From Sedimentisphaerales bacterium (GTDB lineage: Bacteria > Planctomycetota > Phycisphaerae > Sedimentisphaerales > Anaerobacaceae), in the NCBI GenBank assembly GCA_963708075.1, contig OY970194.1, positions 1,216,001 to 1,280,000 of the forward strand: 64,000 nucleotides of DNA. Reading direction: 5' to 3'. Made by a program: the position numbers and the translations under genes. This document shows, piece by piece, positions 22,227 through 46,047 of the stretch. Within the stretch, counting starts at the first letter, position 1; each line of letters begins with the position of its first letter. The notes beneath the pieces were generated by a model. The model was not told where the DNA came from. It was given only the letters and a program-made list of their open reading frames with translations, and did no database searches.

Positions 22227-23462
22227 ATGTCTACGCGCGCTGCAATCTGGGTTGCCTTTGTCACGATTCTTGTCCTCGCCCTGGCGGTTTTCTTCGTCAT
22301 GCGAGGCGGCATCGGGCCCATGGCTTCAGCCCCGAACGGCGATGGCGATGAACAGATGCCGGCGGCCGCACCTGCCCCATCCGGCGGGGCTGACTGGCCG
22401 ATGTTCCATGGCAGCCCAAATCTTCGCGGCGTTGCCTCGGGGACTCTGGCCGACTCCCTGACCCTCCGCTGGAAGTTCAGGACCGATGCCGAGGTCAAGT
22501 CCTCTCCCGTAATATCCAGTGGACGCGTTTTCGTTGGCTCATCCGACAAGAACGTATATGCCCTCGACCTGCAGACTGGCAACAAAATCTGGTCTTACCA
22601 GACCGGCGATTCCATTGAGGCAGCGCCCTGTGTGCTCGACGGACGGGTCTTCGTGGGCTCGGGGGACAATTGGCTTTACGCGCTGGATGCCGGGACCGGC
22701 GAGTTGAAGTGGAAATACGAGACGGAGGGCCAGATCCTCGGAGCGGCCAATTGGACGCGATCTCCGGACGGACAGGGGACGTGGATTCTCGTCGGCAGCT
22801 ATGACAACAAGCTGCATTGTGTGGACGCCTCCAGCGGCAAGCAAGTCTGGGTGTATGAAACCGGCAATTACGTGAACGGTTCGCCCGCGGTGGATGATGG
22901 CAAGTGCGCCTTCGGCGGCTGCGATGCGATCATCCACGTGGTCTCTCTCGCCGATGGCTCGAAGGTCTCCGAGATCGACAGCGGCTCGTATATCGCCGCC
23001 TCCGCCGCATTTCTCGACGGCGAAATCTACGTCGGCAACTACGAGAACGTCTTCCTCAAAGTCGATGTCAAGGCAGGCAAGACCGTCTGGAAATATGATC
23101 AGAGCGACGCCCCATTCTTTTCCTCACCGGCCGTTGGCGACGAGTTCGTTGTCTTCGGCGGCCGGGACAATCACGTACACTGTCTTCGCCGCGACGATGG
23201 CCGGCAGGTCTGGATGTTCAAGACCCTGGGCGAGGTGAACAGCTCGCCGGCGATCTGCGGCGACAAGGTCATCGTCGGCAGCGATGATGGCCGGCTGTAT
23301 CTGCTCCGATTGACGGATGGGAAACAACTCTGGTCCTACGAGATCGGTCAGCCTGTGACCTCCTCACCCGCCGTGGCAGGTGGGCTCGTCGTGGTCGGTT
23401 GCGACGATGGCTACGTCTATGCGTTCGGGCCCAAGCCGGCCGACGGGGGCAAAACGCCATGA
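22227..23462 (+). CDS. Membrane-anchored PQQ-like (BamB-like) beta-propeller
   Basis: N-terminal TM; WPMFHG; repeated SSP...VFVGS.D..YALD...G...W blades. Confidence 0.85.
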   Translation: MSTRAAIWVAFVTILVLALAVFFVMRGGIGPMASAPNGDGDEQMPAAAPAPSGGADWPMFHGSPNLRGVASGTLADSLTLRWKFRTDAEVKSSPVISSGRVFVGSSDKNVYALDLQTGNKIWSYQTGDSIEAAPCVLDGRVFVGSGDNWLYALDAGTGELKWKYETEGQILGAANWTRSPDGQGTWILVGSYDNKLHCVDASSGKQVWVYETGNYVNGSPAVDDGKCAFGGCDAIIHVVSLADGSKVSEIDSGSYIAASAAFLDGEIYVGNYENVFLKVDVKAGKTVWKYDQSDAPFFSSPAVGDEFVVFGGRDNHVHCLRRDDGRQVWMFKTLGEVNSSPAICGDKVIVGSDDGRLYLLRLTDGKQLWSYEIGQPVTSSPAVAGGLVVVGCDDGYVYAFGPKPADGGKTP

Positions 23463-24757
23463 GGATCGTCCAGATCACTCCCGGGTCCGGGGACAATTTC
23501 TACTGCGAGAACTGTCTGCGTGACATCGCCCTGGTCAAAGCGCTGCGAAAGCTCGGCCATGACATACTGATGGTGCCCTTGTACCTGCCTTTGCAGGCCG
23601 ACAAAGTCGAGCAGGTCAGCAACGCACCGATCTTCTTCGGCGGCGTCAACGTCTATCTCCAGCAGAAGCTCTCATTGTTTCGCAGAACGCCACGATGGAT
23701 CGACCGATGGTTTGACTCCCGTGGATTGCTCGAATGGGTTGGCCGCAAAGCCGGAATGACGAACGCGCGAGATCTCGGTGAAACGACGATCTCGATGCTG
23801 CAGGGGGAAGACGGCCGGCAGGTGAAGGAACTCGACCGGTTCGTGGACTGGCTCGTGACGGACCGGCAGAAGCCTGATCTCGTGTGCCTGTCCAACGTGC
23901 TGCTCGCCGGCCTGGCCCGGCGGATCAAGGAGAGGCTCGGCACGCCCGTCGTCTGCCTGTTGCAGGATGAAGATGGATTCCTCGACGGCCTGAGCTCGCC
24001 GTACGCGGAGCAGGCGTGGGCGGTCATCCATGAGAGGGTGCACGACATTGACGCGTTCCTGGCCGTCAGCAAGTACTACGCCGGCGCCATGTTGACGCGA
24101 CTGAAAGTGGAGACTGCCCGGATGCACGTGGTCCGCACGGGCGTCGAGCTGGATCTGTACAAGCCGGATGGCGGGAACCCGGTGACGCCGACCGTCGGAT
24201 TTCTGTCTCGGATGTGCCCGGAGCGGGGATTGGAGAGACTGGTCGATGCCTTCATTCTCCTGAAGAAGAACGAGAAATTGGCCTCTGCGAAGCTTCGCGT
24301 TTCCGGTGGCAGGAGCGCCGGCGACGAGCCGTTTATCGAACGGCTGCGAGGCAAGCTGGCGGCGGCAGGTGTTCTCCATGACGTCGAGTTCCTGCAGGCC
24401 TTCGACCGCGATGCGAAGCTGGAGTTTCTGAGGGGTCTTTCCGTGCTGTCGGTGCCCGAGCCGCAGCCCGTTGCGTACGGGCTGTACGTGCTGGAGGCGT
24501 TGGCGATGGGTGTGCCGGTGGTTGAGCCGGCGATCGGTTGCTTCCCGGAAACCCTTGCCTTGACCGGCGGCGGTGTGCTATATGAGCGCAATACGGCGGA
24601 AGAACTCGCCGAGACTCTGACGCCTTTGCTGCTGGACCCGCAGGCGGCCCGACGGCTCGGCGCCCAGGGCCGCACCGGGATGCTCAAGGCCTTCAGCATT
24701 GAACAGACCGCGGCCGAAATGGTCCGCATTTTCGAGCAGGTGGTCCGCAAATCCTGA
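23459..24757 (+). CDS. Glycosyltransferase family 4 with N-terminal CxxC
   Basis: MRIVQITPG, FYCENC, YGLYVLEALAMGVPVV; overlaps upstream stop (ATGA). Confidence 0.85.
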   Translation: MRIVQITPGSGDNFYCENCLRDIALVKALRKLGHDILMVPLYLPLQADKVEQVSNAPIFFGGVNVYLQQKLSLFRRTPRWIDRWFDSRGLLEWVGRKAGMTNARDLGETTISMLQGEDGRQVKELDRFVDWLVTDRQKPDLVCLSNVLLAGLARRIKERLGTPVVCLLQDEDGFLDGLSSPYAEQAWAVIHERVHDIDAFLAVSKYYAGAMLTRLKVETARMHVVRTGVELDLYKPDGGNPVTPTVGFLSRMCPERGLERLVDAFILLKKNEKLASAKLRVSGGRSAGDEPFIERLRGKLAAAGVLHDVEFLQAFDRDAKLEFLRGLSVLSVPEPQPVAYGLYVLEALAMGVPVVEPAIGCFPETLALTGGGVLYERNTAEELAETLTPLLLDPQAARRLGAQGRTGMLKAFSIEQTAAEMVRIFEQVVRKS

Positions 24758-24764
24758 CGGGGAC

Positions 24765-25457
24765 ATGATGATCGAGCTTATCGATGTGACGAAGAGTTAC
24801 GGCGGGAAGGATGGGCCCGATGCGGTGAGCGTGCTGAAAGGCATCACGCTGCACCTTGGGCGGGGCGAGTCGATTGTGATCGTCGGTCCCTCCGGATGTG
24901 GCAAAAGCACGCTGCTGAACATCATCGGCGGCCTGGACCACCCGACGACCGGCCGCGTCATGTTTGACGGAAGGAACCTCGCGGACCTTGCCGATGACGA
25001 ACTCGCACGGATACGCAGCCGAGAGATCGGATTCGTATTCCAGTTGCATCATCTGCTGCCCCAGTGCACGGTGTTGGAGAATGTCGTCGTGCCCACCCTG
25101 GCCGGGCGAAATGACGCGTCACCGAAAGACCTGCGCGGAAGGGCGGAGGCGTTGCTCGACCGCGTAGGCCTGAAGGATCGCATGTCCTATCGGCCCGGGG
25201 AGCTATCCGGCGGGCAACGCCAGCGGGTCGCCGTGGCGCGGGCCCTCATCAACGGGCCGAAGCTGCTGCTGGCTGACGAGCCGACCGGCTCGCTGGACGA
25301 AGGTACCTCACAGAGCATCGCCGAGTTGCTGGTCGAGTTGAACCGCGATGAGGGAGTGGCGCTGGTCGTGGTGACACACTCACGGGAGCTGGCCGGGCGG
25401 ATTGGGCGCGTCATGGAACTGAGCGGCGGGACGTTGCACGACAGAGGTCGCTCATGA
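24765..25457 (+). CDS. ABC transporter ATP-binding protein (LolD/MacB type)
   Basis: GPSGCGKST, LSGGQRQR, LADEPTG, VTH. Confidence 0.93.
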   Translation: MMIELIDVTKSYGGKDGPDAVSVLKGITLHLGRGESIVIVGPSGCGKSTLLNIIGGLDHPTTGRVMFDGRNLADLADDELARIRSREIGFVFQLHHLLPQCTVLENVVVPTLAGRNDASPKDLRGRAEALLDRVGLKDRMSYRPGELSGGQRQRVAVARALINGPKLLLADEPTGSLDEGTSQSIAELLVELNRDEGVALVVVTHSRELAGRIGRVMELSGGTLHDRGRS

Positions 25458-28400
25458 GTTTCTGGCGCCTCGTCACTCGCAGTCTGGGTTTCTACTGGCG
25501 GACCAACGCGGCAGTCCTTCTGGCCGTGGCCGTAGCGACGGCGGTGCTGACCGGCGCGCTGGCGATCGGCGATTCGGTGCAGTACACGCTTCACAGGACA
25601 CTTGATGCCCGTTTGGGCCGGATCGAATTTGCCGTCCTGCCCCAGGGCCGTTTCTTTCGGGCCCAGCTTGCCGACGATCTGCAACAGCAACTCGACGGCA
25701 CGATAGCCCCGGTTTTGCAGGTCCCTGGTATCATCACGAACGAGGACGGCTCCCGGCGAATCAACCGCGCTCGCGTACTTGGTGTAAACGAGAGGTTCTA
25801 CGCCGCCGGCCCGGGGCAGAATCCATTTGAGGGAGGTGCGAATGGCAGCGTCATCGTGAGCGAGTCTGTGGCAAAGGAGCTTCGAGTCGCTCCCGGCGAT
25901 GAGATAGTCCTGCGGGTCGAGAAATCGGGCGTCATGCCGCGTGATGTCCCGCTGGTATCTGACGAGGACCGAACGATTGCCGCTCGCTTGAAGGTCCGGG
26001 CTGTGGCGGGCGATTCGGCCTTCGGCCGATTCGATCTCCAGGCGAACCAGGCGGCCCCGCTTAATGTGTTTGTCCCGTTGGTCTGGCTGGGGAAGCAAGT
26101 CGGGCAGGAAGATCGGGTCAATGTGCTGCTTGCGGCCGGACCCGAGTCCGGAATCACGGCGGCGCAGGTGAATGCGGCTGTGCAAAAGACCTGGCAGTTG
26201 ACCGACGCGGGGCTGGAACTTCGCCACTTAGAGCAGCAGAACGTGCTGGAGCTTCGCAGCGGGCGAATCTTCATCGACGAGCCGCTTGCCGCCGCAGCCA
26301 TGAAGGTCGACAGCAGCGCGGCCGGCACACTGACGTATTTCGTCAACAGCATTCGCCTGGGCGACCAGTCAACGCCGTATTCCATGGTGGCGGCGATGGA
26401 TGGTGACACGGGCGCAGCGAGCCTGCTACCGTCAGGTATGCGATCCGACGAGATCGTGGTCAACCAGTGGCTGGCCGACGATCTGAGGGCCAGGATTGGC
26501 GACTCACTGGATCTCGCGTACTACGTCATCGGTTCCGGGCGTCGGCTTGTCGAGGCGCAGCGTTCCTTCAAGATCGTCCGAATTGTTCCTCTCGATGGTC
26601 CGGCAAGGGACCCGAACCTGATGCCGGAATTCCCTGGCCTGGCGGATGTCGACAATTGTCGCGACTGGAAGCCGGGCATTCCGATCAACCTTGACAGCAT
26701 ACGCCCAAAGGATGAGAAGTACTGGGATGACTATCGGGGCACGCCCAAGGCCTTCGTTACACTGGAAGCCGGACAGGCGGCCTGGCACAACCGCTATGGG
26801 AACCTGACCGCCGTACGTTACCGGTGGCGCGAAGGGCTCGCGCAGGAACTCGATCAGCAGCTCAGGAGCACGATCGACCCTGCCGTGGTGGGTCTGCTCT
26901 TTCAGCCGGTGCGGGAGCGAGGCCTGCGGGCAGGCAGCGAGGGGACCGATTTCGGCGAGCTTTTCCTTGGCTTAAGCATGTTCCTGATCACCTCTGCGGT
27001 TATTCTCACGGGACTGCTTTTTGTGTTCGGCGTGGAGGGCCGCAGCTCGCAGGTTGGGATGCTTCTGGCGATTGGCTGGCCCGCGAGACGGATCAAGCGT
27101 CTGCTTCTGGCTGAAGGCGGACTCATCGCATTGCTCGGCACAATCATCGGCGTCGGAGCCGGGTTGCTCTATACGCAGTTGATCGTCTACGGCCTTTCCA
27201 CGTTCTGGAAGGGAGCCGTCGCCGGCGCCAGGATTCAGTTCCACGCGGATGGCATGAGTCTGGTCGCCGGTGGGCTCGGTGGACTGTGTGCCGCCTGGTT
27301 CGCGATCTGGATCACGCTTCGCCGACAGACGGCCCGGCCCATCCGCCAACTGCTGACGGGCAATCTGGAGGAAGGCTTGACAACCCGCAAATCCCGTTCG
27401 CGGGGTAGGATCGGGATTGCTGTGGCTGTCGTGACGTTCATCAGCGCAGCCGTACTCGTAGCGATTGTGGCGGGCGGGGACAGTCAGGCCGTCGCGGGGG
27501 CGTTCTTCGGCGCCGGCGCATTGCTGTTGCTTGGGACCCTGGCTCTGAGTCACGCGGCCTTACGAATCCTCGGGGGCTGGGACAGGCCTCTGGTTTCGCT
27601 GAGAGGGCTCGGCTTCCGCAGTGCGACGCGGCGCAGCGGCGCAGTCTGGCCGTCATCGCACTGCTGGCCTGCGGCGTATTCATGGTCGTGGCGGTCGGGG
27701 CGAATCGCCGCAGTCCGCCGGCGGGGCCTGCGAGCAGGGCGTCCGGTGCAGGCGGCTTTGTCTTGTATGGTGAGTCGTCCGTCGGGATCCTCTACGACCT
27801 GAACGGCGAGGCCGGGCGGAAGGAACTCGGGCTTGACAGCGGCAGGCTGGCCGGTGTCGGGGCAGTCCAATTCCGCGTGCGCGAGGGCGATGATGCAAGC
27901 TGTCTCAACCTGAATCGAGCGCAGCAGCCGCGATTGCTGGGCGTGCAGATAGAGGCATTGAAGGACCGACAGGCATTCACATTCGCAGCCGAAGCGGAGC
28001 AAGGCCGGGGATGGGACCTGCTTCGGCCGGACCCGCGGGGCGAATTCGTGCCGGCCGTGGGGGATGAGCCTACGGTCAAGTGGGCTCTGGGCAAGAAGGT
28101 CGGCGATGAGCTTGAGTACACGGACGAGATGGGCCGGCCGTTCCGCGTGCGAATCGTGGGCATGCTGGAAAGTTCGGTCTTGCAGGGGAGCCTGGTCATC
28201 GCGGAGAATGAGTTTACGGCCCGGTTCCCATCCGTGGACGGCTACCAGGTGTTCCTGATCGACGTCTCGGCCGACAAGACAGATGTCGTGGCGCAAGAGC
28301 TGTCGTCGGGTCTCAGGGATTATGGGTTGGTGCTGACGCCGACGCAAGAGCGGCTGGCCGTCTTTAACGCAGTGGAAAACACGTACCTGTCGATCTTCGC

Positions 28401-28761
28401 GGTGCTCGGCAGCCTGGGACTTGTGCTCGGCAGTATCGGCCTGGGGCTGGTCGTGCTTCGCAACATGCTCGAACGGCGTGGCGAGCTGGCGATGCTTCGG
28501 GCCGTGGGATTCGATAGAGGGCGTCTCAGACGCATGGTATTCTACGAGCATTGGCCTCTGTGCCTGGCTGGCCTGGGCTGTGGAGTGATCGCGGCGATTG
28601 TGGCTGTGATCCCTGCCTTGCAGTCACGGGGCGGACAAGTCCCGTTCGCCGGACTGCTGGTGACGGTTGCCGCCGTAGGTGTCAGCGGGGCCGTATGGGT
28701 GTGGCTCGCGGGAACGCTGGCCCTGCGCGGCAGGTTGCTGGACGCCCTGAGGCATGAATGA
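25454..28761 (+). CDS. Large duplicated FtsX/MacB-type ABC permease; frameshift near 27640
   Basis: Two halves (GMLLAIGW; ELAMLRAVGF) in ORFs 25454..27802 and 27682..28761; one added base restores RSGRSLAVIALLACG. Confidence 0.8.
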
Positions 28762-28774
28762 TTTCGGGTGACGG

Positions 28775-30194
28775 ATGAAGAGATTCTCGATTGCCGATAT
28801 CATACCGATGGTATTCGCCGTCGCTGGCGTTGTCGGGCTGATGTACCTTTGGCTCAGCGCCGATGCGGCCGTGGAGCTTAAGGAGCGATTGCCCGGCGCC
28901 GACAACAAGCCGGCAAATGCGCCGGGGGATAGTGATGCCATCAAGATCGCCGGTACGCTGACGAAGTCGGATGGGGTTCCCGCGGACCTGCCGGGCGCCT
29001 GGCCCAGGCTTCGGGGGCCCAACGGCGACGGCATCAGCCCCGAGAAGGTGGCGTTGAGCAGGCAATGGCCCGAAGGGGGGCCTCGCGTCCTCTGGTCCGT
29101 CGAAGTTGGTGAAGGTTATGCGGGGGCGGCAGTCCTGGGCGGCAAGGTCTACATCCTCGACTATGACCAGGCGAAGCAGGCCGATGCCGTTCGATGCCTC
29201 TCGCTGACGGACGGCAAGGAGATCTGGCGGTACTCGTACCCAGTGAAGATCAAGCGATTTCACGGCATGAGTCGGACCGTGCCGGCGGTGACGGATAAGT
29301 ACGTCGTTACGCTGGGGCCCAAAGGGCACGTGACCTGCCTCGATGCGAACACGGGCGAGTTCCGCTGGATGCTGAATCTCGTCAAGGAATTCGGCACAGT
29401 GATCCCTCAGTGGTATGCGGCGCAGTGCCCGTTGATCGACGGGGGCATGGCAATCATCGCCCCGGCCGGCGATGTCCTCATGATCGCCGTCGAGTGCGCC
29501 ACGGGCGAGATCGCCTGGAAGACTCCGAACCCGGACAAGTGGGTGATGACGCATTCATCGGTCGCGCCCATGGAATTCAAGGGAAAACGCTTTTACGTCT
29601 ATTGCGGCGGATCAACCGATGCCGGCGGAGTCGTCGGCGTCTCAGCGACCGATGGCACGGTCCTGTGGAAGACAGAGGAATGGAAGGTGCGGACGAACGT
29701 GCCGGTGCCGGTCGTGGTCGGAGAGGATCGGATCTTCCTGACCGCCGGCTATGGGCAGTACGACAACGGGTGCGCCATGCTCCGGCTCGTGGAGAACCGA
29801 CGGCAAAATAACCGCCCGGACGGAATTCAGGTATGCGACGGATGTCTTTGGCACGATGCAGCAGACCCCGATTTTTTACAGCGGCTACATCTACGGTGTC
29901 GGCATGGACAAGCAGTTGATCTGCTTGGACTTAGAGGGCAACGTGGTCTGGGGCAGCACGAGTGCGAACCGGTTCGGCTACGGCCCGTACGTGATCGCCG
30001 GCGGGCTCCTCTATGTCCTCGATGATTCGGGCGTGCTGACGCTCGTCGAGCCGGCATCCTCGGGGTACACGCCACTGGCCCGGGCCAAGATCATGGACGG
30101 TCTTGAGACGTGGGGACCGATGGCTGTCGCCTCGGGCCGATTGATCGTACGCGACCTGACGCACATGGTGTGTCTCGACATTGCCGGCCGGTAG
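28775..30194 (+). CDS. Membrane-anchored PQQ-like beta-propeller; frameshift near 29797
   Basis: WPRLRGP; C-terminal TWGPMAVASGRLIVRD lies in another frame; removing one A restores LVETDGK. Confidence 0.8.
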
Positions 30195-30272
30195 GGCGTT
30201 GATGAAACGGCGTCGATCTGCTATGATGGACTTTCCGTAAATGATTGTCAGATAAGGGCATAGGATAAGGCC

Positions 30273-31313
30273 GTGCAGAGAGGTTTGGGAAAGATAGACA
30301 CCCGGTGGGCCGTCGCGGCGCTTGTTGTTGCGGCGGTTGTGCTCGCGGTGGTTGCAGTCCTGCGGCTCGATACGACGGGCGAAAGGGGCAGCGGCCTGAG
30401 CGGCGAGTACGCCTATGACCTCGCCGAGCTGGCCAAGGTCGATCCCAATCTCATCCTCTACGCCGAGTCCGGCCCGGCGATCAGCACGGGCTTCAAGCAG
30501 TCGCGGGCTATCGCTCTGGACTCAGGCGGTCGGATGTATGTTGCCGGAGACAAGGCAATTCGAGTGTTCGGCAGCACGGGCAATTCCGAGCGGATGATCG
30601 AGCTGTCAGGCGAGCCGCGATGCCTGATGGTCGTGGAGAATGGCAACATCTATGTCGGCTTGGCGGATCACGTCGAAGTCCTCAACGCCGAGGGCAAGAG
30701 CATCGCGTCGTGGGACAGCCTGGGGGATGAAGCCGTCCTGACGAGCATCGCCAGGCACGAGGACAGCGTCTTCGTCGCGGACGCCGGCCATCGGGTCGTG
30801 CTGCATTACGACACCGCCGGCACGCTCGTCGGCCACGTCGGCGAGAAGGACCCCGACAGGGACATCCCGGGCCTCGTGATTCCAAGTCCTCATTTCGACG
30901 TGGCGGTTTCCCGTGATGGCCTGCTCCGCGTCGCCAACCCGGGGCGAAACCGAATCGAGACGTACACGCTCGACGGCAATCTTGAATTCTGGTGGGGCCA
31001 GCGCTCCGTCAAGATCGAGGGTTTCTGTGGCTGCTGCAATCCCGTGAATTTCGCGATCCTGCCCGACGGCGGCTTCGTCACCAGCGAAAAAGGGCTGGTG
31101 CGGGTGAAAATCTACAATAGCGACGGTGGCTTCGTCGGTGTGGTCGCCGGCCCGGCACAACTGACCGACGGCAGTCTGATGAAGATTTGTGAGACTCCCG
31201 AGGAATGCCAGGGGCCCGCGTTCGACGTGGCCGCGGGCGCGGATGGGCGGATCTATGTCCTCGACACGACTGACAACGTGGTCAAGATCTTCAGCAGGAA
31301 AGAAGTGAAATGA
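30273..31313 (+). CDS. Membrane-anchored NHL-repeat beta-propeller
   Basis: IALDSGGRMYVA, VFVADAG, IYVLD blades; GFCGCCNP motif. Confidence 0.8.
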   Translation: MQRGLGKIDTRWAVAALVVAAVVLAVVAVLRLDTTGERGSGLSGEYAYDLAELAKVDPNLILYAESGPAISTGFKQSRAIALDSGGRMYVAGDKAIRVFGSTGNSERMIELSGEPRCLMVVENGNIYVGLADHVEVLNAEGKSIASWDSLGDEAVLTSIARHEDSVFVADAGHRVVLHYDTAGTLVGHVGEKDPDRDIPGLVIPSPHFDVAVSRDGLLRVANPGRNRIETYTLDGNLEFWWGQRSVKIEGFCGCCNPVNFAILPDGGFVTSEKGLVRVKIYNSDGGFVGVVAGPAQLTDGSLMKICETPEECQGPAFDVAAGADGRIYVLDTTDNVVKIFSRKEVK

Positions 31314-31549
31314 TGAAAGAGCCTATACATGCTCGCAGGCAGTTCTTTCGCAGCATGCTCCGCAACGTGAGCCTGGCGCTGCTCGGAGTTGCCGGCGGCA
31401 TCGGCGTCACGAAGCGACGCAGGCTTGTGCGGCAGGGCACGTGCGTCAGTGGGGGGGTCTGCTCCGGCTGCGAAGTCTTCGAGGATTGTGGTTTACCCCG
31501 CGCGCTTTCGGCCAAGCTCGCGTCCGCGAGGATTCACGATGGCAGATAA
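31310..31549 (+). CDS. Small twin-arginine-like membrane protein with four Cys
   Basis: RRQFFR, hydrophobic segment, C-x5-C-x2-C-x5-C; overlaps both neighbours. Confidence 0.6.
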   Translation: MMKEPIHARRQFFRSMLRNVSLALLGVAGGIGVTKRRRLVRQGTCVSGGVCSGCEVFEDCGLPRALSAKLASARIHDGR

Positions 31550-32108
31550 CGGCAACAGCATAAATCGTCGCAAGTTCCTGCGGGAAGGACTCTGGGGCGC
31601 CTGCCTCGGGGGTCTGGGTGCCGCCGCCGGCCTGACCGCCGCCAGGAATAACCGGGACAACATGGTCTGGCAGATCGATCCGAACGTCTGTATCCAGTGC
31701 GGCAATTGTGCCACGTACTGCGTGCTGGAGTTGTCCGCCGTCAAGTGCGTGCAGGCGTACGCCCTGTGTGGCTACTGCGATCTGTGCACGGGGTACCTGG
31801 TCCCGGAGCCCACCGCATTGGACACCAGCGCGGAGAACGCCTTGTGTCCCACGGGGGCGATCAAGCGGACTTACGTCGAGGATCCCTATTACGAGTACAC
31901 GATCGATGAGGTTCTGTGCAACGGCTGCGGCAAGTGCGTCAAGGGCTGCCTGGCCTTCGGCAACGGGTCGCTGTTCCTCCAAGTGCGTCACGACCGCTGT
32001 AAGAACTGCAACGAGTGCGCCATTGCGGCCGCGTGTCCTTCCGGGGCGTTCAAGCGAGTCCCGGCGGACCAGCCGTACCTGCTCAAAGGAGTCGAACGGA
32101 CACAATGA
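31539..32108 (+). CDS. NapG/MauM-like multi-[4Fe-4S] ferredoxin with Tat-like signal
   Basis: NRRKFLR; CIQCGNC, CGYCDLC, CNGCGKC, CKNCNEC...CP. Confidence 0.8.
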   Translation: MADNGNSINRRKFLREGLWGACLGGLGAAAGLTAARNNRDNMVWQIDPNVCIQCGNCATYCVLELSAVKCVQAYALCGYCDLCTGYLVPEPTALDTSAENALCPTGAIKRTYVEDPYYEYTIDEVLCNGCGKCVKGCLAFGNGSLFLQVRHDRCKNCNECAIAAACPSGAFKRVPADQPYLLKGVERTQ

Positions 32109-33406
32109 CGCGCTGGGCCCGTATCACAGCTTTTCTGGTCGTCCTGCTGATGCCGTCTTTGAACGCGATGGGCGAGCTGCGCTTCCCGCCGCCGGAGTTT
32201 GAAAGCGGCTACCAGTTTCCACAGACGACGTCGCCGGCAGCCAGGGCAGCCGTTTATGAGTATATCGACGCGGCGGTCTTGCTCGCGGCCCTGCTGCTGG
32301 GGACGTATCTGATCCTCAGGAAGCGCAGCCGTCGGGCCATCTACGTCCTGATGATCTCCGCCCTGCTGTACTTCGGATTCTGGCGCGATGGGTGCATTTG
32401 TCCTATCGGCGCGATCCAGAATGTCACTTTGACGATTTTTGACAGCGGCTACGCCATCCCGATTACCGCGGGCATATTCTTCGTTCTCCCCCTGGTCTTT
32501 ACGCTATTCGTGGGCCGGACCTTCTGCGGGGCCGTGTGTCCGCTGGGGGCGATTCAGGACGCGGTGCTCATCCGTCCCGTCGCGGTCCCGCGCTGGCTGG
32601 AGAGCGGGTTGCGACTGGGGGCATATACCTATCTCGGTGCGGCGGTGCTCTTCGCGGCCATCGGCAACGCCTTTCTCATCTGCCGATACGACCCATTCGT
32701 CGGTTTCTTCCGGCTGAGCGGCAACTGGAACGTCCTCATCATCGGTGCCTCGCTTCTGTTGATCGGGCTGTTCATCGGCCGGCCGTACTGCCGCTTCCTC
32801 TGCCCCTATGGCGTTCTGCTCCGCCAAATGTCCCGCCTGTCCAAGTGGCGCGTGACCATCACGCCGAACGAGTGCGTCAAGTGCCGGCTGTGCGAAGGTG
32901 CATGCCCCTTCGGAGCCATCCGCGAGCCGACTGGGGACTGGCCACAAGGGGAGTACAAGATCGCCAAGCGACGGCTGGCTTTGTTCCTTCTTCTGCTGCC
33001 AGTGCTGGTTGCCGCCGGCGGCTGGGGCGGCTATGCCCTGAAGGAGCGATTGGCTCGCGTGCATCCGAGGGTCCGAACGGCGGAGCGTGTCTATCTGGAG
33101 GAGACGGGGAAGGTCGAAGGCACGACCAACGCCAGCAACGCATTTCGGGCGACGGGGCGGACCAGTGAAGAGCTCTACCAGGAGGCCACGGCGATTCGTG
33201 ACCGATTTGCTCTGGGGGGGGCGTTGCTTGGCGGATTTCTCGGCCTTGTTGTCGGCGGCAAACTCGTGGCTCTTTCCGTCCGACGCCGGCGCATAGACTA
33301 CGAGGCGGACCGGGCGGGTTGCTTTGCGTGCGGGCGATGCTATCAGTACTGTCCGAAGGAACGCGAGCGGTGGGACAAGGGCAAAGAGGTAATGGCAGGG
33401 CGTTGA
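32105..33406 (+). CDS. NapH/MauN-like polytopic membrane 4Fe-4S protein
   Basis: GRTFCGAVCPLG, RPYCRFLCPYG, CVKCRLCEGACP, CFACGRCYQYCP; multiple TMs. Confidence 0.85.
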   Translation: MTRWARITAFLVVLLMPSLNAMGELRFPPPEFESGYQFPQTTSPAARAAVYEYIDAAVLLAALLLGTYLILRKRSRRAIYVLMISALLYFGFWRDGCICPIGAIQNVTLTIFDSGYAIPITAGIFFVLPLVFTLFVGRTFCGAVCPLGAIQDAVLIRPVAVPRWLESGLRLGAYTYLGAAVLFAAIGNAFLICRYDPFVGFFRLSGNWNVLIIGASLLLIGLFIGRPYCRFLCPYGVLLRQMSRLSKWRVTITPNECVKCRLCEGACPFGAIREPTGDWPQGEYKIAKRRLALFLLLLPVLVAAGGWGGYALKERLARVHPRVRTAERVYLEETGKVEGTTNASNAFRATGRTSEELYQEATAIRDRFALGGALLGGFLGLVVGGKLVALSVRRRRIDYEADRAGCFACGRCYQYCPKERERWDKGKEVMAGR

Positions 33407-35133
33407 TGGCGCAGACAACGGAACAGACTCGTTCGCATGACAGCGATGTCCGATACCGGATGGTGCGGAACACGGCCACTATAGCCGCTGTTTTCTCAGC
33501 GATCTTTACGGCATTGCTCGTGGTCAACCTCATCGGCAGCGGCATCATCGGGCCGTGGCGGGAGAACAGGCTGGCGGCCATGAAGCTGCAGGTGCAGAAA
33601 GAGCCGACGAATCAGGAGCTCGTATCGCAGGTGCGCCAACTGGACCTCAAGATCCGCCGCGACAGGATTTGGCGGCTGGATTTCGCCCACAAGGCAACGC
33701 ACATGCTGCTTGGCAGCGTGATCGTCATGATTGTGGCGGGCGGGATCGCGGGCAAGATGAGGAAAGGACTGCCCCGGCCACGGCATCAGCCGGATGCGGG
33801 GCAGATGCAGATAAGAGAAGCAAAGCAGGCCCGGCTGGCGGTGGTTGGCGCTCTGGCAGTCCTCGTCCTCGGAGGACTGTCTGTTGCTATGAGTGGATGG
33901 GTGAGATTCGCGCAGGCTGGAGATTCAGGACCGGCGTTCGCCACCGCGGAGGAAATGCGCCAGCAGTGGCCCCGCTTCCGAGGTCCCGGCGGCGCGGGCA
34001 TAAGCGCCTACGCCAATGTCCCCATGCAGTGGAACGGCAAGACCGGCGATGGGATCTTGTGGAAGTCCAAGGTGCCGCTGCCGGGACGGAATTCCCCCGT
34101 GGTCTGGAAGGACCGGGTTTTCCTCTCCGGCGGGGACCCGAATATGCGGCAGGTATATTGCTTCGATGCCGCCAAGGGTCAGCTCTTATGGACGGGCGAT
34201 GTCCCGACTGTGCCGCTGCCGAAGGACAAGGAGCTGAACGTCATGGAGGATACGACCTATGCGCCTTCGACCGTAGCCACCGATGGCCGGCGGGTCTACG
34301 CGATCTTTCCCACGGGCGACGTGGCCGGGTTCGACTTCCAGGGCAGGCGGCTGTGGCACAAGAACCTGGGCCTGCCCGACAACTCCTATGGCTACGCATG
34401 CTCGCTGGAGACCTATGAAAAGCTCGTTCTCATCCAATACGACCAGGGCGATGGCACGGAAGGCAAGTCGCGCTTTATCGCACTGGACGGGCAGTCCGGA
34501 AAGGTCGCCTGGGAAGTGAAGCGCGGAACGCCGAATTCCTGGACGACGCCGATTATCGTCGATGTGGCGGGCCAGCCCCAATTGATCACCGTGGCCAAGC
34601 CGTTCGTTATCGCCTACAACCCGGCCAATGGCGTCGAGCTGTGGCGCGCGGAGTGCGTGGGCGGCGACGTGGCCCCATCGCCGATCTATGCCGGCAGTCT
34701 GGTTATCGCGATCGAGCCGTATTCTCAGGTGGTCGCCGTCAAGCCGACGGGACAGGGTGACGTCACGAAGACGCACGTTGTCTGGCACATGGAGGACAGC
34801 GGACCGGACATCTGCTCGCCCGCCAGTGACGGCAAGTACGTATATACGCTCGAGAGCAGCGGCCTGCTGCTCTGCTGCAACGTGGAAGACGGCAAGAAGG
34901 TCTATGAAATGGATTTGAAGGAGGAGTGCCGGGCATCCCCCGGTATCGTCGGCGACAAGCTGTACCTGCTCGATATGAAAGGGATCATGCATATCGCCCA
35001 GATCGGGCCCGAGTACAAGGAGATCGCAAAGTGTGAGCTCGGCGAGGAGTGTTTCGCTTCCCCCGCATTTGCAGACGGCCGGATTTACCTGCGCGGGGCT
35101 GAGAACCTGTACTGCATTGGCAAGGCCCCGTGA
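33406..35133 (+). CDS. PQQ-like beta-propeller with three N-terminal TM helices
   Basis: WPRFRGP; NSPVVWKDRVF; FASPAFADGRIYLR. Confidence 0.85.
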   Translation: MAQTTEQTRSHDSDVRYRMVRNTATIAAVFSAIFTALLVVNLIGSGIIGPWRENRLAAMKLQVQKEPTNQELVSQVRQLDLKIRRDRIWRLDFAHKATHMLLGSVIVMIVAGGIAGKMRKGLPRPRHQPDAGQMQIREAKQARLAVVGALAVLVLGGLSVAMSGWVRFAQAGDSGPAFATAEEMRQQWPRFRGPGGAGISAYANVPMQWNGKTGDGILWKSKVPLPGRNSPVVWKDRVFLSGGDPNMRQVYCFDAAKGQLLWTGDVPTVPLPKDKELNVMEDTTYAPSTVATDGRRVYAIFPTGDVAGFDFQGRRLWHKNLGLPDNSYGYACSLETYEKLVLIQYDQGDGTEGKSRFIALDGQSGKVAWEVKRGTPNSWTTPIIVDVAGQPQLITVAKPFVIAYNPANGVELWRAECVGGDVAPSPIYAGSLVIAIEPYSQVVAVKPTGQGDVTKTHVVWHMEDSGPDICSPASDGKYVYTLESSGLLLCCNVEDGKKVYEMDLKEECRASPGIVGDKLYLLDMKGIMHIAQIGPEYKEIAKCELGEECFASPAFADGRIYLRGAENLYCIGKAP

Positions 35134-37502
35134 GTCGTTTGTTGAGTTCTATGGACCAGTTGGATCTTACATTCGTTGATGAGATCGTCGGGAAGGTCGG
35201 CACCGGCAAGGAGAAGGTGCTGGAACTTCTTCAGGCGATTCAGGGCCATTACGGCTATCTACCGACGGAGGCCCTGCAGCGCGTCTGCGAACTGACGGAG
35301 ATCACGCCGGCGGCCATCGCGGGCGTCTCGACGTTCTACGACCAGTTTCGCCACCGTCCCGCGGGTCGTCATATCATCCACGTCTGCGTAGGCACCGCCT
35401 GCCACGTCAAAGGCGCGGAGCAGGTCTATGAGGAGTTCCGCCGGTACCTGCAGATTCCTGAGGGGGAGGACACGGATGCCCAGAAGCTATTCACGGTCGA
35501 GCGGATCGCCTGCCTGGGCTGCTGTACGCTGGCGCCGGCGGTGCAGATCGACGAGGTGACGTATGGTCATCTGACGCGGGAGACCGTCGCGAAGGTCATC
35601 AACGATTTTCTCCGGCTGGAACAGGCCCGGGCCACCGAGCGGCCGCGCCGCCTGCGGCGTGTGAAGCCCGGCGACCGCGGGGAAATTCGCATCGGACTGG
35701 GTTCGTGTTGCGTCGCACGCGGCAGTGGCAGATTGCATGGGGCTCTGCAGGATGCCCTGGCCCGGGCCGGCGCGAGGGTGCCGGTCAAGCGGGTCGGCTG
35801 CGTCGGCATGTGTCACCAGACGCCCCTGCTGGAGATCGTGCAGCCGAACGGGACATCGTTCCTCTATGCCCGGGTGCAGCCGGAGGATGCCACGCCAATC
35901 GTCCAGCGGCACTTTGGCGTGAAGGGGCCGCACCGGAGACTCTCCAATGCAATATCCACAACCCTGGACCGCCTGCTGACCGATGAGGACTCCGAGCCCG
36001 TCACACGGTACCCGATCAACGTGCGGGACCGTGGTGTGTCGGACTTCCTCGATCGTCAGATTCACATCTCCACGGAACACTGCGGCCACATCGACCCGAC
36101 GGACATTGATGAATACCTGCAGAATGACGGCTTCAAAGCGATGGAGAAGGCGCTGAAGGAGCTCGATCCCCAGGCCGTGATCGCACAGATCGAGGGCAGC
36201 GGACTTCGAGGCAGGGGTGGCGCGGGTTTTCCCACGCACCTCAAGTGGTCCGCCGTTCGCGCCGCTGATGGCGAGAAAAAGCACATCGTCTGCAACGGAG
36301 ATGAGGGCGACCCCGGCGCGTTTATGGACCGCATGCTGATGGAGTCCTACCCGTACCGGATTCTGGAGGGGATGATCATCGCGGCCCGATGCGTCGGCGC
36401 CCGTGAGGGCTACCTCTACATCCGCGCGGAGTACCCGCTGGCGATCAAACGCGTCACGGAGGCCTTGGAGAAATGCCGCGAGCGCGGCTTCCTGGGCAAC
36501 CATATATTGGGCACGGACTTCTCGCTTGAGCTGAAAATCGTGGCAGGAGCTGGGGCGTTCGTGTGTGGCGAGGAAACGGCGTTGATGGCGAGTATCGAGG
36601 GCCGTCGCGGGATGCCCAGGTTGCGGCCGCCGTTCCCGGCGCAGAAGGGTCTCTGGGGATGGCCGACGCTGATCAACAACGTGGAGACGTACGCCGCCGT
36701 GCCCTGGATCCTTCGCAACGGAGCGGAGGCGTTCGCCCGAATCGGGACAGGCCGGAGCAGGGGTACGAAGGTCTTTGCCCTGGCCGGCAAGGTGGCCCGG
36801 GGCGGCCTGATCGAGGTGCCTATGGGCATTTCGGTCGGCCAGATTGTCGAAGAGATCGGCGGGGGCATCGCGGGCGGGCTGAAATTCAAGGCCGTGCAGG
36901 TGGGCGGTCCCTCCGGCGGATGCATCCCGGCGACGAGGGACAACCTGTCCGTGGATTACGAGACGCTCACGGAGGCCGGGGCGATGATGGGCTCCGGCGG
37001 CCTGGTCGTGCTCGATGAGACCGACTGCATGGTCGATATCGCGAGATACTTCCTTCAGTTCACGCAAAACCAATCCTGTGGCAAGTGCACGTTCTGCCGG
37101 GTGGGAACTCGCCGGATGCTGGACATCCTCGACCGGCTGTGTATTGGCAAGGGCGAGGCGGCGGACCTCGAAGAACTCGAACACTTGGCAAAAATCATCA
37201 AGCAGGGCAGTCTCTGCGGGCTGGGCAAGACGGCCCCAAACCCGGTCCTTTCGACGATGCGGTACTTCCGCGACGAGTATGAGGCGCATGTCCAGGGACG
37301 CTGCCCGGCTCGCAAGTGCAAGGCTCTGATCAAGTACACCATCACGGATGCCTGCATTGGCTGCACGCTTTGCGCCCAGCACTGCCCGACGGAGGCCATT
37401 GAAATGAAGCCGTACGAGAAACACGAGGTCATAGACGAGAAGTGCACGCGGTGCGGGACATGCAAAGTCGTCTGTCCCTCCGATGCGGTTCGAGTGGAAT
37501 AG
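35130..37502 (+). CDS. NuoE/NuoF (HydC/HydB-like) fusion, NAD(H)-linked flavo-iron-sulfur subunit
   Basis: CVGTAC..CLGCC; second thioredoxin-like 2Fe-2S; GRGGAGF; DEGDPGAFMD; GGPSG; SCGKCTFC; C-terminal 2x[4Fe-4S]. Confidence 0.9.
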   Translation: MSRLLSSMDQLDLTFVDEIVGKVGTGKEKVLELLQAIQGHYGYLPTEALQRVCELTEITPAAIAGVSTFYDQFRHRPAGRHIIHVCVGTACHVKGAEQVYEEFRRYLQIPEGEDTDAQKLFTVERIACLGCCTLAPAVQIDEVTYGHLTRETVAKVINDFLRLEQARATERPRRLRRVKPGDRGEIRIGLGSCCVARGSGRLHGALQDALARAGARVPVKRVGCVGMCHQTPLLEIVQPNGTSFLYARVQPEDATPIVQRHFGVKGPHRRLSNAISTTLDRLLTDEDSEPVTRYPINVRDRGVSDFLDRQIHISTEHCGHIDPTDIDEYLQNDGFKAMEKALKELDPQAVIAQIEGSGLRGRGGAGFPTHLKWSAVRAADGEKKHIVCNGDEGDPGAFMDRMLMESYPYRILEGMIIAARCVGAREGYLYIRAEYPLAIKRVTEALEKCRERGFLGNHILGTDFSLELKIVAGAGAFVCGEETALMASIEGRRGMPRLRPPFPAQKGLWGWPTLINNVETYAAVPWILRNGAEAFARIGTGRSRGTKVFALAGKVARGGLIEVPMGISVGQIVEEIGGGIAGGLKFKAVQVGGPSGGCIPATRDNLSVDYETLTEAGAMMGSGGLVVLDETDCMVDIARYFLQFTQNQSCGKCTFCRVGTRRMLDILDRLCIGKGEAADLEELEHLAKIIKQGSLCGLGKTAPNPVLSTMRYFRDEYEAHVQGRCPARKCKALIKYTITDACIGCTLCAQHCPTEAIEMKPYEKHEVIDEKCTRCGTCKVVCPSDAVRVE

Positions 37503-37504
37503 CC

Positions 37505-39076
37505 ATGCCAAAGATCACGATAGACGGCCGCGAAGTGCAAGTCCCTGTCGGCGCGACAATCCTCGACGCCGCGGAGAAGCTCGGGATCTCAATCCCGACG
37601 ATGTGCCACCTGCGCGGCCATGAGGCGGCAACGAGCTGCATGGTGTGCGTGGTCAAGGTGGTGGGCGTGAACGGCCTCGTGCCGGCCTGCGGCGCCCTCG
37701 TCCGGGACGAGATGCAGGTCCAGAGCGATTGTCCGGAAGTGCTTGAGGCGAGGAAAGCGGCGATTGAGCTGCTGTTGAGCGATCACGTGGGCGATTGCGT
37801 GGGTCCCTGCCAGATGGGTTGCCCGGCTCACATGAATATCCCGCAGATGATTCGCCAGATCGCGGCGGGCCAGTTGAAGGACGCCATCGCCACTGTCAAG
37901 CGCGACATCGCCCTGCCGGCGGTGCTGGGTCGAATCTGTCCCGCCCCGTGCGAGAAAGCTTGCCGGCGCAGGCAGCACGACGAGGCAGTCTCCATCTGCC
38001 TGTTGAAACGATATGTTGCCGACATGGACCTGCAATCGGCTGCGCCCTTCATTCCGGCGTTGTCGCCAAAGCGGGAAAAGCGTGTCGCGATCATAGGGGC
38101 CGGTCCTGCGGGTCTGGCTGCGGCCTTCTACCTGCAGCAAGACGGTTTCAATTGCACCATTTTCGATGACCATGACGAGCCCGGCGGTATGCTCCGCTAC
38201 GGCGTGCCGGAGGAGAACCTGCCTCGTGACGTGCTGAAGGCCGAGATCGCACAGATTGCGAGACTCGGTGTGACATTCCAATTCGGCACACGCGTCGGTG
38301 CCACTGTGCCGATGGAAAGAATCCGCAATCGGTTCGATGCCGTTTTCATCGCCGCCGGCGAGTCGCAGGCCGATGACCTTGCCTCCCTCGGCGTCGATGT
38401 GTCACCCGAAGGTGTCAAAGTCGATGGTCACACGAGCATGACAAGCGTCCCCGGGGTCTTCGCGGGCGGCGCTGTTGTGCGAAAGCATCGATTGACCGTA
38501 CGTGCAGTTGCCGACGGCAAGGCGGCGGCGGAATCCATCCATCGATACTTGACCGGCGAACGGGCGATTGAAGTCGGACGAGCGTTCAACAGCCGGATGG
38601 GCAAGCTCCAGGAGGGGGAAATGGAGGTCTTTCTGCGTTCAGCCAGTGGTGAAGCCAGGCGCAAGCCCTCCAGTTACACCGGCGGCTTTGGCGAGGAGGA
38701 GGCACGTGCGGAGTCCCTTCGTTGCCTGCATTGTGACTGTCGCAAGCTGGATGACTGCCTGCTGAGGCAATATGCACAAGCGTACGATGCTCGGCAGGCG
38801 AGATACAAGGCCGACCGGCGGCGATTCATCCAGCGGACCGAGCATCCGGAGATCATCTACGAGCCGGGCAAATGCATCAGTTGTGGCATCTGCATCCAGA
38901 TTGCCTCCGCGTTCAAGGAGAAGCTCGGCCTGACGTTCATCGGCCGCGGCTTCGACGTGCGCGTCGCCGTGCCGTTCGACGCCTCCCTGGCTCAGGGCCT
39001 GCAGATCGCCGCGGCACAATGTGTCCAAGCCTGTCCCACCGGCGCGCTGGCCTTTAAGGAGCATCGCGAGCCCTAA
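37505..39076 (+). CDS. 2Fe-2S / GltD-like FAD / 4Fe-4S oxidoreductase subunit
   Basis: IPTMC..SCMVC..PAC; PCQMGCP; GRICPAPCE; IIGAGPAG; GVFAGG; RCLHCDC; CISCGIC..CVQACP. Confidence 0.85.
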   Translation: MPKITIDGREVQVPVGATILDAAEKLGISIPTMCHLRGHEAATSCMVCVVKVVGVNGLVPACGALVRDEMQVQSDCPEVLEARKAAIELLLSDHVGDCVGPCQMGCPAHMNIPQMIRQIAAGQLKDAIATVKRDIALPAVLGRICPAPCEKACRRRQHDEAVSICLLKRYVADMDLQSAAPFIPALSPKREKRVAIIGAGPAGLAAAFYLQQDGFNCTIFDDHDEPGGMLRYGVPEENLPRDVLKAEIAQIARLGVTFQFGTRVGATVPMERIRNRFDAVFIAAGESQADDLASLGVDVSPEGVKVDGHTSMTSVPGVFAGGAVVRKHRLTVRAVADGKAAAESIHRYLTGERAIEVGRAFNSRMGKLQEGEMEVFLRSASGEARRKPSSYTGGFGEEEARAESLRCLHCDCRKLDDCLLRQYAQAYDARQARYKADRRRFIQRTEHPEIIYEPGKCISCGICIQIASAFKEKLGLTFIGRGFDVRVAVPFDASLAQGLQIAAAQCVQACPTGALAFKEHREP

Positions 39077-39777
39077 GCAGGCCGGGCCATTCGCAGGGCG
39101 ACCTCGGCGACGCGTCGGCCGAGGGCTTTTGTTGTCGTCATGCCGTACTCGTCTTTGAGCACACCACCCTCGGCGCCGCTCCAGACGGTTCCGCCGAGGC
39201 GCGAGCTGGGCCGGCCGTTGCCGACAATGACCATTTCCTGGCAGTGAAGGGACATTTGCACCGACTGGATTGTCGCCTCCTGGCCGCCATTGCGCGAGCC
39301 GCCCACCGCCACGACCCCGGCCGCCTTGTTGCTCAACACGTAGTCAGGGTGATAGAGGACGATGCACCGCTCCAGAAAGGCCTTGCACAGCGAGCTCATG
39401 TTGCCGAAGTAGACGGGCGTGCCGATGATGATACCACCTACCTTCGGGTCCTTGAGTCTGGGCACGAGTGTCGGAAAGTCATCCCGTTCACCCTCTCCCA
39501 GGGGGACGCCCGCGGCGACATTGCCATTGATCCTCAGCCCGGCTAACTCGATCAACTCAGTTTCGATCCTCGGGCTGACTTCCTTCGCCGCATCGAGGGA
39601 AACCTGCAACGCAGCGGCTGTGGTTTTGCCTTTGCGGGGACTGCACGAGATGGCGATGATTCTGACCTTGTCATCTGATGAACCTGCGGCCGAGGCCATC
39701 GGTCCGGCAACGGCGGAAACGGCGGCACCGGCAACCATGGAACTCCTGACGAAATCGCGACGCGTGACATCTCTCAT
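39073..39777 (-). CDS. Flavodoxin-fold (NADPH-dependent FMN reductase-like) protein with Tat-like signal
   Basis: TRRDFVR; SCSPRKGKTT; GTPVYFG; GGSRNGGQE. Confidence 0.8.
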   Translation of the reverse strand: MRDVTRRDFVRSSMVAGAAVSAVAGPMASAAGSSDDKVRIIAISCSPRKGKTTAAALQVSLDAAKEVSPRIETELIELAGLRINGNVAAGVPLGEGERDDFPTLVPRLKDPKVGGIIIGTPVYFGNMSSLCKAFLERCIVLYHPDYVLSNKAAGVVAVGGSRNGGQEATIQSVQMSLHCQEMVIVGNGRPSSRLGGTVWSGAEGGVLKDEYGMTTTKALGRRVAEVALRMARPA

Positions 39778-39922
39778 GAATATCTCCTCTTCACAATTTG
39801 GTGAACTGTTATTGCCGGGACAAGTATATATGGCTACTATGGATTTGAACAGGCTGACAGGCTTGGAATATACTCCTGAAGGCGTAAGTCCGTGTGAATA
39901 CTGAAGTTCAGAAAGGGTTGGC

Positions 39923-41176: not shown

Positions 41177-41265
41177 TCGCTTCGGTTTGATCGTCACATC
41201 TACAGCGGACCATCTACGTACCCGCGCAGAAGAGGTGAAACGCAGTGCTTGAAAGGGGTTTGAGG

Positions 41266-45914: not shown

Positions 45915-46047
45915 GCGCCTGGCAACTTGCTCTTCGATTTTTGCCTTTGAACTGAACTCCTATGGGAATAGTATAGATTGCCAAGTGCTTATCTTTGTTT
46001 AGAGCCTTGGAAAACGTGGTTGGAAGTCAAGTTGAAAGGACCGCACT

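Follow-up and report, generated by a model that had tools for sequence, protein, structure and literature searches.

What does an electron-bifurcating type of redox core do in an operon that also encodes a glycosyltransferase, an ABC transporter, and membrane-anchored beta-propellers? The question is raised by a 64,000-nucleotide stretch of the genome of a Sedimentisphaerales bacterium of the Planctomycetota (GenBank assembly GCA_963708075.1, contig OY970194.1, positions 1,216,001 to 1,280,000 of the forward strand; hereafter, the window), in which twelve co-oriented genes occupy positions 22227–39076. A reading of the letters without database searches (hereafter, the original prediction) had proposed these genes as one uncharacterised trans-membrane redox machine. 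The twelve genes, here named A to L, are borne out, and the domain names given to their products match the Pfam and NCBIfam calls. The parts are known, and the operon is real, widespread, and a new variant of the Bfu family; it is probably part of a new pathway. The claim that no named pathway has this gene set agrees with a literature search, largely outside the subscription papers, that found no description of it.

The operon and its gene calls

The host genome (G000) is a single contig of 7.5 Mb. The genes of the operon are as follows.

22227–23462, + strand: A, membrane-anchored PQQ-repeat (BamB/ACSF4-like) beta-propeller of the A-B-C-D module (PF13570, 303 bits; PF13360)
23459–24757, + strand: B, GT4 glycosyltransferase with an N-terminal CxxC, hub gene of the wider system (PF00534)
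24768–25457, + strand: C, LolD/YbbA-type ABC ATPase (PF00005; TIGR02211 at 265 bits, below the cut-off of 308)
25454–28761, + strand: D, double-FtsX type VII ABC permease with large conserved periplasmic domains (PF02687, PF12704)
28775–30194, + strand: E, anchored PQQ-repeat propeller with a candidate metal site (invariant His/Cys)
30273–31313, + strand: F, anchored six-bladed NHL propeller, marker gene of the redox module (F(C/S)GCCNP motif)
31310–31549, + strand: G, small twin-arginine protein with C-x5-C-x2-C-x5-C, probably holding a single Fe-S cluster (motif)
31539–32108, + strand: H, twin-arginine 4x[4Fe-4S] ferredoxin, NapG/NrfC/WorS-like, predicted periplasmic (Cys and RR motifs)
32105–33406, + strand: I, membrane polyferredoxin of the NapH/NosR/CcoG family (PF12801; invariant Cys)
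33406–35133, + strand: J, protein with three transmembrane segments and a C-terminal PQQ-repeat propeller, a possible membrane scaffold
35130–37502, + strand: K, BfuC-BfuB (NfnC-NfnB) fusion with a complete bifurcating-type core, as judged from PDB matches
37505–39076, + strand: L, NfnA-derived BfuA without the NADP domain, the Fdh-like C-terminal domain, and cluster A4

The seven overlaps listed in the original prediction are exact: 4 nt for A/B (at 23459), C/D (25454), F/G (31310), H/I (32105), and J/K (35130), 11 nt for G/H (31539), and 1 nt for I/J (33406). The remaining intergenic gaps within A–L are 10, 13, 78, and 2 nt. A scan for promoters and terminators gave 5 and 12 sites, respectively, where shuffled sequence gave 3.6 and 12.3; one weak promoter-like site falls within the 78-nt E-F gap.

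In the window, one frameshift interrupts D and another interrupts E, neither of which the original prediction mentioned. Their homologues are single open reading frames (ORFs) of about 1100 aa (1069–1236 aa) for D and about 470 aa for E, and the contigs of two independent runs (X1 and X2) have one extra base after 27637 in D and one base fewer at 29795 in E, so the frameshifts are assembly errors; these contigs rule out D and E as true pseudogenes.

A tight redox module and a looser companion

A scan with H confirmed at least 311 relatives among 600 pattern matches, and the best 80 loci were kept for neighbour counts, in which each denominator comprises only those loci with enough DNA. The best 80 come from Planctomycetota, Verrucomicrobiota, Bacteroidota, Omnitrophota, and others. 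Upstream of H, F is present in 75/75 and E in 60/68; downstream, I is present in 72/72, J in 63/64, K in 54/59, and L in 50/55. Looser company is kept upstream by D (28/59), C (25/57), B (24/56), and A (19/50). Gene order around H is conserved far beyond chance, and the predicted synteny across Planctomycetota, Verrucomicrobiota, and Bacteroidota holds there and in other groups. These counts resolve the operon into a tight redox module, E–L, and a looser module, A–D. The proposal that the twelve genes act as one unit survives for the linkage of E–L and falls for a fixed twelve-gene unit, since A–D lie upstream in roughly half or fewer of the loci.

The small gene G was recovered by tblastn at 45 of 75 loci, and a motif search recovers 24 of the 30 misses. 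Strong matches to I occur in 23/23 genomes of the same genus and in 6/17 others of the order. Genes inserted within other copies of the operon are mostly mobile or unrelated. The original prediction also drew a link to a PFOR gene lying two genes upstream; this link is not sustained, as PFOR is in range in 1/80 loci and in 0/44 other annotated regions, and in close relatives it lies just outside the 10 kb flank. The cultured Perlabentimonas gracilis (locus L071) carries E–L plus A and B, and cultured carriers such as this one make the ideas developed below testable. Several Bacteroidota loci (L070, L071, L076, L084, and L087) have three or four extra tandem propeller genes upstream of E.

A bifurcating-type core with a degenerate third-site subunit

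In NfnABC, according to the available text of PMC11829005 and PMC12018979, the electron path runs from NADPH through FAD, A7, A6, A3, A2, and A1 to a bifurcation site at B1, FMN, and C1. We used as references the NfnABC/StnABC enzymes of C. saccharolyticus (9BOV/9BP5), S. ovata (8OH5), and T. sibiricus (9N5U). The best PDB matches of K are NfnB chains (9bov_B at 750 bits, 8oh5_B, 9n5u_B), and those of L are the NfnA subunits of these Bfu-family transhydrogenases (9bov, 8oh5, 9n5u). With site names (B1–B5, C1) assigned by alignment to 9bov_B, K keeps the ligands aligned with C1, B1, B2, B3, and B4 in 51/51 sequences. The BfuC [2Fe-2S] C1 ligands C86, C91, C128, and C132, the residues C650/653/656/696 and C633/H720/C725/C730, eight C-terminal Cys, and the flavin motifs GDPGAFMD, GAGAFxCGEE, and GGPSG are each found in 51/51; at the B5 site, C194 and C224 are found in all 51 and C193 and C228 in 38. 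K thus matches BfuB best and has all the core ligands of the reference enzymes, from which it differs in having BfuC fused to BfuB.

L aligns with NfnA residues 5–297 and approximately 427–674 and is 523 aa long, as against 963–1178 aa for its NfnA matches. Like the references it keeps the ligands of A1, A2, A3, A6, and A7, with the A1/A2 residues C34/45/48/62, H94, C98, C412, and C418 invariant in 48 sequences; A4 is lost, as it is in the T. sibiricus enzyme according to the available part of its description. The fourth ligand of A6/A7 is lysine (K168) in 42/49 and glutamate in 7/49. Unlike the references, L has no part of the Fdh-like domain and is missing approximately 140 residues that contain the NADP fold; nor does it conserve the FAD-site Arg: position 238 is variable, and Asp is present at position 323 in 18/49. 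Of 63 L sequences, three of them fragments, 2 carry an NADP motif and 54 the FAD glycine-rich motif. K and L differ from the reference enzymes, too, in being encoded alongside membrane and periplasmic genes.

By sequence, K and L comprise the defining parts of a Bfu core (BfuB, BfuC, and BfuA with A1 and A2), and the complete ligands and flavin motifs of K support the claim of a bifurcating-type core. What distinguishes NfnABC, namely the NADP(H) domain, the FAD-site Arg/Asp, and the Fdh-like domain, is missing from them, and on these alignments L is an Nfn catalytic subunit by descent whose NADP domain has been lost. The original prediction had stated that the operon holds no terminal enzyme. 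That conclusion stands for a different reason than the one given: the GltD-like L itself descends from the Nfn catalytic subunit, and the operon is without a working terminal enzyme because L lost its NADP domain. In these anaerobes, such genes, when annotated as ‘Nfn’ or as the small subunit of glutamate synthase, would then encode proteins unable to bind NADP in the usual way.

The NADP domain is absent from 49/49 sequences that pass a length filter of 500–620 aa, but universal loss was rejected: the filter excludes 10 of the 58 ORFs assigned to L, and two of those excluded keep the domain. On a quick tree of K (30 hand-chosen rows, midpoint root), the K proteins of the operon group in a single clade, separate from the other NuoF-like proteins of the host. 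The Verrucomicrobiota loci L069 and L075, whose L is intact, are nested among NADP-less Verrucomicrobiota, and the tree does not support their form as the ancestral state. In L104–L107 the FAD domain of L is gone as well, through at least two separate losses on this tree, with the A6/A7 Cys mostly retained; the short forms of L104–L106 have an extra Cys beside the A7 motif. Loss of the NADP domain, and sometimes of the FAD domain, with the Fe-S ligands kept suggests that L serves as a wire whose end point is a partner protein.

The type 2/3 and membrane Bfu enzymes (Wor-, Nuo-, and Mbh-Bfu) likewise treat BfuABC as a plug-in, to which further subunits are added for a third reaction (PMC9304861, as far as its available text goes). 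The NapGH-like trans-membrane branch, Tat-exported subunits, and propellers found here occur in none of the types described in that text. The same classification, in the part available, lists Bacteroidetes among the clade 53 Nfn-Bfu, where operon K proteins may sit, misassigned; the available supplement text names none of six searched taxa.

Membrane and predicted exported proteins

In H, 16 Cys are invariant in 78/78 sequences and a 17th in 77/78, and a twin-arginine motif is present in 75/78. The host genome has TatC. These features are those of a four-cluster ferredoxin of the twin-arginine translocation (Tat) type, and H is predicted to be exported. The motif is also found in 36/41 sequences of G and 13/73 of F. 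G had been called a four-Cys membrane peptide and is better viewed as a small twin-arginine protein.

I contains a CxC motif and two CxxxCP motifs, and two additional helices interrupt its 2x[4Fe-4S] domain. It scores 40 bits against the napH model TIGR02163 (cut-off 213), and a structure search found no solved relative beyond its ferredoxin motif. H and I share with NapGH/NosGH/MauMN, NosR, and CcoG the combination of a Tat-type four-cluster ferredoxin and a membrane polyferredoxin with two CxxxCP motifs. They differ from NapGH/NosGH/MauMN in the sub-cut-off score of I and the extra helices that split its ferredoxin domain, in lacking a nitrate, N2O, or amine enzyme (Pfam and NCBIfam searches of the operon found no nitrate, N2O, or other terminal reductase), and in occurring in genomes without the tested menaquinone genes. 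Judged by these motifs, H and I would work like NapGH but are not NapGH.

The propellers have conserved positions of their own. F carries FCGCCNP in 50/73 sequences and FSGCCNP in 21/73 (71/73 jointly), and its model is six-bladed (pLDDT 89) with the NHL domains of TRIM proteins as nearest folds; fold searches returned only generic NHL/WD40 domains, and an atlas search only hypothetical NHL proteins. In E, His163, Cys218, and His260 (numbering of homologue L009) are each present in 61/61. The Cys of F and the His/Cys of E are candidate redox or metal sites, with a metal site predicted for E. Against the PQQ quinoprotein dehydrogenase model TIGR03075 the best score was 90 bits (cut-off 480), no search for pqq genes having been made.

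Glycosyltransferase, transporter, and propeller

A has one N-terminal transmembrane segment and adjoins B in both operon types described here, the second of which is introduced in the next section. The CxxC of B (C16 and C19) is invariant in 39/39. The model of B has a GT-B fold (pLDDT 89.6) nearest to GlgM/MshA/SPS; in its E-x7-E motif the second Glu is invariant and the first is not conserved, and an atlas search returned only generic GT4 clusters. The modelled fold and the GT4 profile place B among the GT4 glycosyltransferases, and sugar transfer is its predicted activity.

C and D combine a LolD-like ATPase with a double FtsX/MacB chain. D shows a weak likeness to E. coli YbbP (profile match, E-value 3.2e-8) and has two conserved Cys; a structure search found no solved relative of it. 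With the YbbAP-TesA type VII lipid-extraction complex, as the available text of PMC12646458 describes it, C and D share a single-chain double-FtsX permease, a LolD-like ATPase, and a candidate periplasmic partner enzyme. D is approximately 300 aa longer, however, and its partners are propellers rather than an esterase, and it is by analogy with that complex that we propose extraction of a hydrophobic substrate. At locus L110 (7232–11880), B is flanked by the gene of an MMPL/sterol-sensing transporter and by a LolA-like gene, a further hint of lipid export.

An alternative module sorted by oxygen

Seven queries were run against one fixed set of 200 Planctomycetota genomes, each with a completeness of 90% or more. 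F was found in 24 and B in 61, and L, at a looser match, in 25, of which 18 are F-positive. B is present in 22/24 F-positive Planctomycetota and in 15/15 F- or H-positive genomes of other groups. B occurs without F in 39/200, there mostly with another module: in F-negative genomes, 9/14 B regions hold genes of this second module and in the other 5 B stands alone. The second module comprises a sodium symporter, an EhpF-like ligase, an aldehyde-dehydrogenase-like protein, an Fe-ADH, a HemN-like radical SAM protein, a possible chorismate-lyase-fold protein, a halogenase/QhpG-like flavin monooxygenase, a thioesterase, an EamA protein, and a PaaK-like ligase. Its HemN-like and EhpF-like markers are found in the same 42/200 genomes, all 42 of which are B-positive, and 60 of the 61 B genomes have F or the second module; the exception, G150, has L beside B.

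The two kinds of genome separate along an aerobe/anaerobe line. Subunit I of the aa3-type oxidase is found in 3/20 F-only genomes, 36/38 alternative-only genomes, and 4/4 that have both. Searches with the EhpF-like and HemN-like markers found no second module in the host genome.

EhpF and EhpG are phenazine-carboxylate adenylation and reduction enzymes. The second-module ligase matches EhpF over its full length (E-value 3e-40), with the aldehyde-dehydrogenase-like gene and Fe-ADH alongside; neither the window nor the rest of the host genome has an orthologue of this ligase. The ‘chorismate lyase’ gene matches 2nwi weakly (E-value 9e-5), which we take to be a DUF98/chorismate-lyase fold, and has no Pfam match.

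A link to terpenoid genes

Locus L088 pointed to terpenoid genes. In the host, a terpenoid cluster lies at C1:5948679–5957438, 4.7 Mb away from the operon, and encodes a ferredoxin, a radical SAM protein, a DUF116-polyprenyl synthase, an MFS protein, a prenyltransferase-repeat protein, and an SHC-like cyclase. The redox arm and the second module alike are often linked to a polyprenyl-synthase/SHC-like-cyclase cluster. In 7 of the best 80 loci such a cluster lies no more than 10 kb from H, and terpenoid genes are co-oriented and contiguous with E–L or A–D in L104, L105/L131, L121, L122, L123, L128, and L074, joined regions that were picked because the matches shared a contig. Among the 200 Planctomycetota, the polyprenyl synthase is found in 49 and the SHC-like cyclase in 47, the latter in 18/24 F genomes as against 29/176 others. 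These links support the original prediction's suggestion of a glycosylated or lipid-linked product, which we regard as likely.

An SHC-like clade of unknown function, usually adjoining a polyprenyl synthase, has been described in PVC/FCB phyla (PMC7306690 and PMC12324236, as far as their available text goes). The linked cyclase appears to belong to this clade, with which it shares taxa, scores below the SHC/OSC cut-offs, and an adjacent polyprenyl synthase. The GT4/ABC core, the Bfu arm, and the aerobic alternative go unmentioned in the available portions of those papers. Orphan cyclases whose product is a lipid-biomarker question are in this way tied to a gene set with aerobic and anaerobic arms. 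As side observations, the terpenoid cluster often comes with GcvH-like, CobW-like GTPase, and cysteine desulfurase genes (L127:4723–14752, L115, L112–L114), and in many genomes it holds one of two differing radical SAM types, so that sulfur insertion is possible.

Proposed mechanism and alternatives

These patterns are most simply explained by a single pathway, which probably yields a sugar-bearing, often terpene-tailed cell-envelope molecule. Its core would be shared, its polyprenyl/cyclase part optional, and its two arms alternatives that separate by oxygen. We see about an even chance that E–L form the oxygen-independent redox arm of this larger envelope pathway, with A-B-C-D as the shared core and reductive flow directed outward. 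The proteins would form a complex in which both NADH and ferredoxin bind to K and would be coupled at its FMN/Fe-S bifurcation site. L, its A1-A2-A3-A6-A7 clusters serving as an Fe-S wire whether FAD is present or not, would pass mid-potential electrons to I. I would move these across the membrane to the Tat-exported H (and G), from which they would reach the Cys/His sites of the anchored propellers F and E. F and E may act on a hydrophobic substrate that B would glycosylate and the type VII ABC transporter C-D would lift from the inner membrane; in many genomes that substrate could carry a polyprenyl chain supplied by the DUF116-polyprenyl synthase and the SHC-like cyclase. Outward flow is favoured because the aerobic replacement module has an aryl-acid to alcohol reductase set.

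A more specific version, a widespread envelope glyco-meroterpenoid pathway of PVC/FCB bacteria with aerobic and anaerobic forms, in the latter of which a Bfu enzyme without its third site exports confurcated low-potential electrons across the inner membrane to new periplasmic Cys/His metallo-propeller enzymes, is offered tentatively, as a possibility somewhat short of an even chance. In the proposed scheme, bifurcation would gain a new kind of output, electrons wired through the membrane into the periplasm. The more specific version, if true, would make this the first electron-bifurcating complex to face the periplasm and would give the orphan SHC-like cyclases a pathway context.

Several observations weigh against the proposed scheme. 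K-L do not lie beside H-I-J in L046, L056, L077, and L080. B was not found in genomes G071 and G136, and the loci L011, L079, and L123 lack it. F and the second module share a genome in 4/200, both arms occur in G264, and they stand side by side in L050. The SHC-like cyclase is absent from 6/24 F genomes and from 7/10 others tested, and is thus dispensable. The contrasts among sampled genomes are inflated by kinship, and most of these genomes are metagenome-assembled; in a Verrucomicrobiota-centred sample, F (7/121) and the EhpF-like gene (1/121) fall in different genomes, in numbers too sparse to judge exclusivity. The intact NADP domain of L in L069 and L075, within the same operon, means that Nfn activity is compatible with the system. 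Finally, the second module makes or imports a small molecule, for which a wire alone cannot substitute, so the arms need not share chemistry; they may tailor a scaffold differently rather than perform the same reaction.

Among the alternatives, inward flow is unlikely. The propellers would then oxidise a substrate without oxygen, and K-L, like Wor-Bfu with aldehydes, would dispose of the electrons by bifurcating them to NAD+ and ferredoxin; F–L would stand in for the step that the flavin monooxygenase carries out in the aerobic module. The halogenase/QhpG-like flavin monooxygenase of that module and the scarcity of aa3-type oxidase in F-only genomes fit this idea, as does the nearest PDB match of H (9mqx_E, E-value 3e-5), an Fe-S nanowire subunit of Wor-Bfu in the available text of PMC12318220. 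On the other hand, the EhpF-like and HemN-like genes, which are oxygen-independent, are also missing from F-only genomes, and Pfam and NCBIfam searches found no pterin, haem, or flavin dehydrogenase subunit in the operon.

Rather less probable is an energy-metabolism complex, in which a Bfu enzyme would be coupled to a membrane electron carrier through the NapGH-like pair, either separately from A-B-C-D or with the prenylated product as carrier. Nuo-Bfu, with a quinone as third substrate, is a precedent (PMC9304861); A–D often lie elsewhere in the genome, and the host has an Mqn gene of the futalosine pathway. Against this, among five F-positive genomes searched, MqnA/D was found in 1/5 and MenB in 0/5, and four of them (G042, G048, G053, and G066, 90–99% complete) gave no match to MqnA/D or MenB; with neither of the two tested menaquinone routes in those four, a role as a classical quinol dehydrogenase does not hold across the carriers. 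Moreover, B accompanies F even when unlinked, and the operon genes are repeatedly interleaved with A–D and terpenoid genes. As a side observation, a separate host cluster (G000:C1:3942700–3954400) contains an MqnA-like gene and a distant EhpF-like ligase (31% identity), with a long membrane protein and hydrolase-like and aminotransferase-like genes (labels by eye).

Least probable is that F–L form a maturation system modelled on NosR/NosGH with NosDFY or on CcoG, supplying reductant for Cys/His metal centres of periplasmic E, F, A, or D domains and having no direct lipid substrate, for although I belongs to the NapH/NosR/CcoG family, the CC of F, the His/Cys of E, and the CxxC of B are invariant, D has its two conserved Cys, and the operon resembles in composition the clade II nos operons, which combine an ABC transporter, a propeller, and a NapGH-like pair, this idea leaves unexplained both the intact bifurcating core and the small-molecule biosynthetic module that replaces the arm in aerobes.

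Neighbouring genes

One further gene of the same kind lies beyond the limits originally given for the operon.

39923–41176, + strand: PQQ-repeat propeller, found after L in 21/43 loci with enough DNA

Between it and L, an NADPH-dependent FMN reductase-like gene on the − strand (39073–39924) converges on L and overlaps its stop; this gene follows L in just 3/43 loci. Another PQQ-repeat propeller gene, at 41245–42547, is split by a two-base assembly error near 41617. Farther downstream, at 44583–53710, an outer-membrane efflux protein (Pfam) is followed by what appear by eye to be a CusB/CusA-like pair and a DtxR/FeoB-like iron module. On the 5′ side of A, a lipoprotein gene belonging to no family (21259–22092) is also seen at the edge of 4 close-relative loci.

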